A stretch of 352 nucleotides of DNA, from assembly GCF_003334335.1 (NCBI RefSeq), contig NZ_QOWQ01000210.1; one strand, given 5' to 3'. The notes beneath the pieces were generated by a model. The model worked only from the letters and a program-made list of their open reading frames with translations. It ran no database searches and was not told the origin of the DNA. The stretch comes from Escherichia coli. Lineage in GTDB: Bacteria; Pseudomonadota; Gammaproteobacteria; Enterobacterales; Enterobacteriaceae. Below are positions 2 to 352 of this stretch, in pieces (positions within the stretch are counted from its first letter, which is position 1; each line of letters begins with the position of its first letter). The position numbers and the translations under genes were made by a program.

Positions 2-130
2 CGTCACCCTGAACTGATGTTCCGTCACCCGGAAAACGAGTACGACTGGCTGAGCTCAGACGCCGCTGTGGATGAGGCCCTGCTCATAAACGAATACACC
101 TTTACCGAAGGCGGTCTGCGCGCCGGCTGA
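2..130 (+). CDS. 3' end of an upstream ORF, 5'-partial (42 codons plus TGA stop); product unknown
   Basis: Seen in sequence: + frame 2 is open from position 2 to the TGA at 128-130 and translates to RHPELMFRHPENEYDWLSSDAAVDEALLINEYTFTEGGLRAG*. The other two + frames hit stops at 10-12 (TGA) and 15-17 (TGA). It is co-oriented with and 49 nt upstream of the antitoxin gene, consistent with an operon. I do not recognise the peptide, and it does not match my recollection of the DUF987 (YeeT) protein that precedes yeeU in E. coli K-12. Product left unassigned. Confidence 0.5.
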   Translation, partial: RHPELMFRHPENEYDWLSSDAAVDEALLINEYTFTEGGLRAG

Positions 131-179: not shown

Positions 180-352
180 GTGTCAGACGCACTCTCCGGG
201 ACAATGCTTCCCGACGACAATCACGACCGCCCCTGGTGGGGGCTGCCCTGCACCGTGACGCCCTGTTTCGGGGCACGTCTGGTGCAGGAGGGTAACCGCC
301 TGCATTACCTTGCCGACCGCGCCGGTATCAGAGGCCTGTTCAGCGATGCAGA
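180..352 (+). CDS. cbeA: CbeA/YeeU-family type IV antitoxin (YagB/YeeU/YfjZ family), N-terminal 57 codons; 3'-partial, continues beyond the window
   Basis: Seen in sequence: GTG start at 180, preceded by an in-frame TAA at 153-155 and the SD at 168-172; the frame is open to the window end. Translation: VSDALSGTMLPDDNHDRPWWGLPCTVTPCFGARLVQEGNRLHYLADRAGIRGLFSDA. Established knowledge, from memory: this closely matches the N-terminus of E. coli K-12 YeeU/CbeA (MSDTLPGTTLPDDNHDRPWWGLPCTVTPCFGARLVQEGNRLHYLADRAGIRG...), including the long N-terminal extension that separates YeeU-type proteins from the shorter YfjZ/YafW paralogs. Full-length proteins are about 120 aa, so roughly half the gene lies outside the window. 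Confidence 0.85.
   Translation, partial: MSDALSGTMLPDDNHDRPWWGLPCTVTPCFGARLVQEGNRLHYLADRAGIRGLFSDA

Follow-up and report, generated by a model that had tools for sequence, protein, structure and literature searches.

An unusually stable, probably incidental stem-loop within the cbeA (yeeU) antitoxin coding sequence of an Escherichia coli sub-clade

Several kinds of described element may be compared with an inverted repeat in a toxin-antitoxin locus. The operators of type II toxin-antitoxin systems are palindromes located in the promoter and bound by the antitoxin. Intra-operon stem-loops acting as stabilisers or processing sites, which modulate RNase III or RNase E action and give differential stability within polycistronic mRNAs, are usually intercistronic or found in untranslated regions, and are conserved or experimentally mapped. 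Rho-independent terminators and attenuators contain GC-rich hairpins, and incidental mRNA hairpins, local and stable, are found within the translated region of GC-rich genes. For type IV systems, the three K-12 operons of the CbtA/CbeA type were found by qRT-PCR not to be autoregulated by either toxin or antitoxin (PMC5371832). A literature search for structure in cbeA or yeeU mRNA returned no paper, and neither gene name occurs in the main text of the paper mapping RNase III cleavage in E. coli (PMC6212723).

The stretch of DNA analyzed here, 352 nt long and referred to as the window, is identical to an E. coli chromosome stretch annotated in RefSeq, and contains the end of yeeT, a spacer and the start of cbeA/yeeU. 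In the identical locus cbeA is preceded by yeeS and yeeT, and a CbtA-family toxin gene is annotated downstream; this arrangement, together with protein homology, identifies the host gene as cbeA/yeeU, the type IV antitoxin gene of CP4-44-like islands. A protein search with CbeA returned 1,772 homologues, the top matches all carrying PF06154. K-12 cbeA features the same 56-mer as the window (240-295). The features are listed below by window position, with the basis of each assignment in brackets.

15-17: stop codon at the end of yeeT, DUF987 (RefSeq annotation of the identical locus)
yeeT-cbeA spacer: 162 nt (RefSeq annotation of the identical locus)
168-172, + strand: Shine-Dalgarno-like GAGGA, 7 nt upstream of the GTG start, not paired with the hairpin (sequence; 222-nt fold)
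180-352, + strand: 5' part of cbeA/yeeU, type IV antitoxin gene (PF06154), 57 codons from a GTG start (RefSeq annotation of the identical locus; translation; PF06154 in homologues)
242-244 with 291-293: three optional outer pairs, which can stack outside the stem (MFE structure)
247-255 with 280-288: outer helix, 9 bp including G255-U280 (MFE structure)
247-255, + strand: 5' arm of the outer helix, CCUGCACCG, from P23 positions 2-3, C24, T25 and V26 position 1 (inverted repeat I2; MFE structure)
257-259 with 277-279: 3-bp helix, G257-A258-C259 with G277-U278-C279 (MFE structure)
257-265, + strand: 5' side of the inner helices, GAC and GCCCUG, from V26 position 3, T27, P28 and C29 positions 1-2 (MFE structure)
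260-265 with 269-274: inner helix, 6 bp (MFE structure)
266-268, + strand: hairpin loop UUU, 3 nt (MFE structure)
269-279, + strand: 3' side of the inner helices, CGGGGC, bulge AC (275-276) and GUC, from F30 position 3, G31, A32, R33 and L34 position 1 (MFE structure)
275-276: 2-nt bulge AC (MFE structure)
280-288, + strand: 3' arm of the outer helix, UGGUGCAGG, from L34 positions 2-3, V35, Q36 and E37 position 1 (inverted repeat; MFE; family codon counts)

Upstream of cbeA, a 37-codon ORF (window 17-130, + strand; MFRHPENEYDWLSSDAAVDEALLINEYTFTEGGLRAG up to its stop) directly follows the yeeT stop. It is the 3' remnant of a 214-aa gene, found intact between yeeT and yeeU in other islands (L090:69-713), where the protein has the C-terminus ENEYDWLTSDAAVDEAIHINAYTFTEAGLHAG and the same stop. 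The intact protein, annotated as "hypothetical" or as "antirestriction protein", matched no family in an NCBIfam search. The whole stretch is missing from K-12 CP4-44, whose match begins at window position 145.

The hairpin is built on CCTGCACC (247-254), the exact reverse complement of GGTGCAGG (281-288), with GACG (257-260) facing CGTC (276-279) and CCC (261-263) facing GGG (271-273) in the interior; the repeat spans codons P23-Q36 of the coding sequence starting at the GTG at 180, that is +67 to +109 within it. The preliminary description of the window had these coordinates, nested pairings and codons right. It also drew a stable stem-loop of about 15 bp with a 7-nt loop, some 65 nt into the gene: the stem-loop and its place are confirmed (about 67 nt into the cbeA coding sequence), while the structure predicted by ViennaRNA for 240-295 is stronger, at -32.8 kcal/mol, with a 3-nt UUU loop and 18 core base pairs, or 21 when the three outer pairs are counted. 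This stem of 18-21 bp is interrupted by a single unpaired nucleotide, U256, with nothing opposite, and by the 2-nt bulge. Within a 222-nt context the main hairpin is unchanged in both the MFE and the centroid structure, and no pairing with the ribosome binding site is predicted. The antisense RNA folds at -25.2 kcal/mol, against -32.8 for the sense strand, and single-stranded DNA at -14.5 kcal/mol (z = -2.5).

The hairpin was compared with known element types. Rfam cmscan at a permissive E-value gave no relevant match, the one hit being a chance match located outside the hairpin (SECIS_2, E = 4, 15 bits against a gathering score of 70). A terminator scan found no terminator-like site at the hairpin, and no U-tract follows the stem, the sequence after 288 being AGGGTAACCGCC. 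Elsewhere in the window, the promoter and terminator scans reported a weak promoter-like site (186-159) and a terminator-like site (113-97), both on the minus strand.

How far such a fold may be expected by chance depends on what is compared. A perfect 8-bp inverted repeat with a 3-40 nt loop is present at least once in 14% of dinucleotide shuffles of the window, so that an isolated repeat of this kind is, as originally supposed, not rare. The whole structure behaves differently: its z-score against dinucleotide shuffles is -3.5, and none of 200 shuffles is as stable. Synonymous resampling, in which the protein is kept and codons are drawn from the codon usage of the locus itself, gives a mean of -19 kcal/mol at the hairpin site, and only 0.1% of resampled sequences are as stable (P ~0.001); the hairpin lies about 15 kcal/mol below the synonymous-codon expectation. 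After gene-wide correction the fold remains clearly better than the codon-shuffled controls, 1.3% of resampled genes containing any 56-nt window this stable (P = 0.013). Of 21,387 background windows, taken over 305 kb of related loci, just two, both unrelated, exceed the hairpin in stability. This allele has a real, unusually stable hairpin, not a chance-level fold.

The two most stable 56-nt windows in the whole set of loci are L079:2213-2268 (-34.2 kcal/mol) and L078:2465-2520 (-33.8 kcal/mol). Both are AT-rich, with 36-43% GC, lie on the downstream side of the toxin gene region, and may be terminators or repeat elements.

Conservation was evaluated on a family set of 80 loci from one-per-species genomes, 18 from viral contigs and 12 E. 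coli loci. Since the peptide has no indels in the region, homologous 56-mers could be taken in register. The two arms have different histories. The peptide encoded by the 3' arm, A-R-L-V-Q-E-G-N, is almost invariant in the family, and its codons are those of the majority also outside the clade in which the 5' arm encodes L-P-C-T (CTG in 59 of 64 sequences, GTG in 37, CAG in all 64, GAG in 41). L-P-C-T itself is found in a single Escherichia sub-clade; elsewhere the corresponding residues are LKRN, LKPT, LQRD, LNRN and others, and the hairpin is absent, as it is from genes of the K-12-paralogue type and from other enterobacterial YeeU genes. The codons forming the inner helix are also infrequent outside the LPCT clade: CCC at P28 is used in 8 of 64 sequences, GGG at G31 in 4 of 64.

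Folding scores follow the same division. Against synonymous resampling, the mean z is -2.6 in the LPCT clade (18 distinct sequences, closely related to each other) and -0.05 in the 64 other family sequences, with a range from -2.2 to +2.8. RNAalifold, run on 24 family representatives, predicted no consensus pair, and when the structure of the window is imposed on the alignment of the same 24, 60.5% of cells are paired, the value for column shuffles being 59.8%. Over the whole gene, an excess of folding is not consistent from one family member to another (z from -2.7 to +1.5); in this allele the hairpin alone explains it.

A facing pair of CCTGCA, from G-L-Q codons, and TGCAGG is also present in the WGLQRDITPRLG clade, shifted out of register by 5 nt relative to the arm in E. 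coli. It was considered as a case of convergent maintenance and rejected, because CTGCAG is self-complementary and generated by the commonest Leu and Gln codons, and because the z-score is weakly negative (about -0.65 on average).

Five loci of the family set (L003, L004, L006, L007 and L039) contain copies of cbeA of E. coli type (87-90% amino acid identity) or of Citrobacter type, on contigs whose assemblies bear the names Collinsella, Lachnospiraceae, Arthrobacter and Chryseobacterium. These contigs are short in four of the five cases (0.7-2.8 kb), and L039 does not differ from L038, the locus of Citrobacter sp. 18056. They are probably mis-binned or contaminant contigs, not evidence of the real host range.

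Within the LPCT clade, a degenerate pattern for the peptide, with all synonymous options left open, was scanned over metagenome contigs and other loci were added, giving 147 instances, which reduce to 45 different 56-mers. The encoded peptide is exactly GLPCTVTPCFGARLVQEG in most of these alleles, and MFE across the 45 ranges from -36.2 to -19.0 kcal/mol. Among alleles whose peptide is exactly LPCTVTPCFGARLVQEG, pairs are lost through uncompensated synonymous changes at third positions: T25 ACC>ACA (pair C254:G281), G31 GGG>GGC or GGT (C262:G272), T27 ACG>ACA, V35 GTG>GTA, R33 CGT>CGA and L34 CTG>CTT. Q36 CAG>CAA is a further pair-breaking change of the same kind in the clade. No pair partner varies more than G272, the third position of G31, and 23 of the 45 alleles have lost the C262:G272 pair. 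Pairs changed on both sides, and thus compensated, number zero among the 45, and four pairs depart by unpaired cells only. The covariation score in the clade is not above that of shuffles, in a test whose power is limited by the 94% average identity of LPCT sequences. The two checks suggested at the outset thus gave divided answers: the free energy is clearly better than that of codon-shuffled controls, but homologues encoding the same peptide break the pairing and do not restore it. Nor is synonymous codon diversity reduced in the stem: it is 0.143 for codons 23-37 and 0.153 for the rest of the gene (Mann-Whitney P = 0.91).

E. coli copies number roughly 12,700, and strong and weak versions are both abundant. 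Exact matches to the strong 56-mer, K-12 cbeA included, number at least 3,120 among complete E. coli records, and it is the most frequent of the sampled alleles (26 of 147 instances, plus near-identical strong variants). A weak 56-mer encoding the same peptide (-20.4 kcal/mol) is exact in at least 1,973 complete E. coli records. The natural weak allele has ACA in place of ACC at T25, GGC in place of GGG at G31 and GCC in place of GCA at A32. Against synonymous resampling, weak alleles score z values from about -0.5 to 0; the -20.4 kcal/mol allele, at about -0.5, is no better than random codons.

These data may be read in more than one way. The strong fold could be a lineage-specific functional mRNA element of CP4-44-type cbeA, an RNase III-type duplex, a barrier to RNase E or exonucleases, or a pause for ribosome pacing, tuning antitoxin-to-toxin output in an operon without transcriptional autoregulation. 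Its exceptional stability against codon-resampled and genomic backgrounds, the prevalence of the strong allele and the greater stability of the sense strand are all in line with such a role, and the lack of autoregulation at the mRNA level leaves room for post-transcriptional control (PMC5371832). We nevertheless consider it unlikely: the 45 alleles include no compensatory change, natural alleles of the same protein with a hairpin no better than random are abundant, synonymous diversity in the stem is not reduced, and YeeU genes of the K-12-paralogue type and of other enterobacteria lack the structure. A typical RNase III duplex is about 20 bp or longer, roughly two helical turns mostly uninterrupted, with paired cleavages leaving 2-nt 3' overhangs; the stem, of 18 bp or 21 with the outer pairs and broken by bulges, may fall short of this, and the main text of the RNase III cleavage map makes no mention of cbeA or yeeU. 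As far as the sequence comparisons reach, a functional reading is unsupported by conservation, covariation or synonymous constraint, and the suggested influence on translation or mRNA stability finds no backing in conservation. The more specific idea of a recently evolved post-transcriptional control element of CP4-44-type cbeA-cbtA, setting the antitoxin:toxin ratio by processing, stability or ribosome pacing, appears quite improbable; if it held, weak alleles in other islands would correspond to a different expression set-point. Were the hairpin functional, it would provide a rare example of a type IV toxin-antitoxin operon controlled post-transcriptionally.

An element acting as DNA, either a dyad bound by a regulator or a palindrome extruding as a cruciform and affecting transcription or recombination, had also been put forward. 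The perfect 8-bp inverted repeat, its nested complementarity and the stability of the single-stranded DNA fold are what such an element would display. Yet the repeat is 67 nt inside a coding sequence and not at a promoter, is of a kind that occurs by chance in 14% of shuffled windows, and has a 5' arm conserved in one sub-clade only; its arms are 26 bp apart, with bulges, an arrangement unfavourable for cruciform extrusion. The operator version, moreover, conflicts with the qRT-PCR finding that neither toxin nor antitoxin autoregulates such operons (PMC5371832). With no support from conservation either, a DNA-level role is highly improbable. Finally, the run of five G (UGG GGG, 238-242), which ends 4 nt before the stem, might recall a site of programmed ribosomal frameshifting stimulated by the hairpin. 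No in-frame X XXY YYZ heptamer is present upstream, however, and the hairpin is not conserved. Stops are found at 256-258 in the +1 frame and at 293-295 in the -1 frame; both shifted frames therefore end within or just after the hairpin, and no meaningful alternative product would result. Frameshifting may be considered practically negligible as an explanation.

The reading we favour, and judge probable, is that of an incidental stem-loop in the cbeA (yeeU) coding sequence, not under selection, which arose in one sub-clade of E. coli from the codons chosen for a conserved peptide. The 3' arm, GGUGCAGG, made of the majority codons of the family for the invariant peptide L-V-Q-E, is ancestral and reflects ordinary codon use. 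In the sub-clade, residues 23-25 became P-C-T (CCC UGC ACC), creating a 5' arm complementary to it, largely because the core TGCA is self-complementary; the inner helix derives from CCC at P28 facing GGG at G31. As the 5' arm came with P-C-T, and CCC and GGG are minority codons outside the clade, the strong version is derived and lineage-specific. The mRNA would then form a stable local hairpin, presumably melted by translating ribosomes, and the structure would have neither selective maintenance nor a dedicated regulatory role, with at most a slight change in local elongation or decay for strong alleles. The hairpin is thus real, lineage-specific and probably neutral.

Some observations weigh against an incidental origin. 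The hairpin required several changes, all favouring pairing: a switch to P-C-T at residues 23-25, the codon CCC for P28 and the codon GGG for G31. Folding is stronger on the sense than on the antisense strand, as expected if RNA is the relevant molecule. Stability is exceptional in this allele and in K-12 cbeA, and at 94% identity the covariation test has limited power. The value of the case is mainly cautionary: one allele scores as highly significant against both dinucleotide and codon shuffles, yet fails every comparative test, and for this reason single-sequence folding z-scores should not be taken as evidence of function.

Other sequence features are found in the same part of cbeA. A small alternative hairpin, I3 (window 283-304, + strand), pairs UGCAGGAGG with CCGCCUGCA (283-291 with 296-304) around a GUAA tetraloop of the GNRA type, and competes for the main 3' arm; CCUGCA is present twice, at 247-252 and 298-303. 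I3 was considered as a switch partner and rejected, the main hairpin being dominant in the 222-nt fold. It is not conserved, as third-position variants of V35 break its pairing, a breakage that cannot be compensated because position 1 of H42 is fixed. A perfect Shine-Dalgarno-like AGGAGG (286-291, + strand; feature 286-302) overlaps the 3' arm, followed after 8 nt by in-frame codon 41, CTG in the window and TTG in 18 of 24 LPCT-clade genes. Together they would formally constitute an internal initiation site, for a CbeA without residues 1-40. The invariant residues Q-E-G partly impose this motif, and in many relatives the sequence is CAGGAAGG. The P-W-W codons contain CCTGGTGG (232-239, + strand), matching in 7 of 8 positions the Chi sequence, GCTGGTGG; the match is probably forced by the two Trp codons. 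A second intragenic hairpin, AGAGGCCUGUUCAG...CUGGACCAGGCCUUU, covers window positions 330-352 and beyond (L001:3330-3377), at -22.1 kcal/mol. It is stronger (-29.2) in L084:924-979, where the first hairpin is present as a weak allele; there, the non-synonymous changes S55R (AGC>AGA) and H61P (CAC>CCT) add an AGAG:CUCU pairing.

When set beside known systems, the cbeA repeat shares with type II operators its being an inverted repeat in a toxin-antitoxin locus: it is intragenic, CbeA belongs to a type IV system, and no autoregulation has been detected in such operons (PMC5371832). With Rho-independent terminators and attenuators it has in common a GC-rich hairpin; it differs from them in having neither U-tract nor terminator call, and in lying midway through an essential portion of the antitoxin ORF. 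The likeness to intra-operon stabiliser or processing stem-loops consists of a GC-rich stem of about 18 bp, located in a polycistronic toxin-antitoxin transcript upstream of the toxin gene; contrary to them, the cbeA hairpin is found inside a coding sequence, is not conserved and is predicted from sequence. Incidental intragenic hairpins of GC-rich coding sequences resemble it in being local, stable, contained in the translated region and not conserved, and in stemming from codon composition, here joined to a self-complementary TGCA core. Compared with them, the cbeA hairpin is stronger than usual, lying about 15 kcal/mol below the mean of the codon resamples and at the far end of the distribution of local windows.
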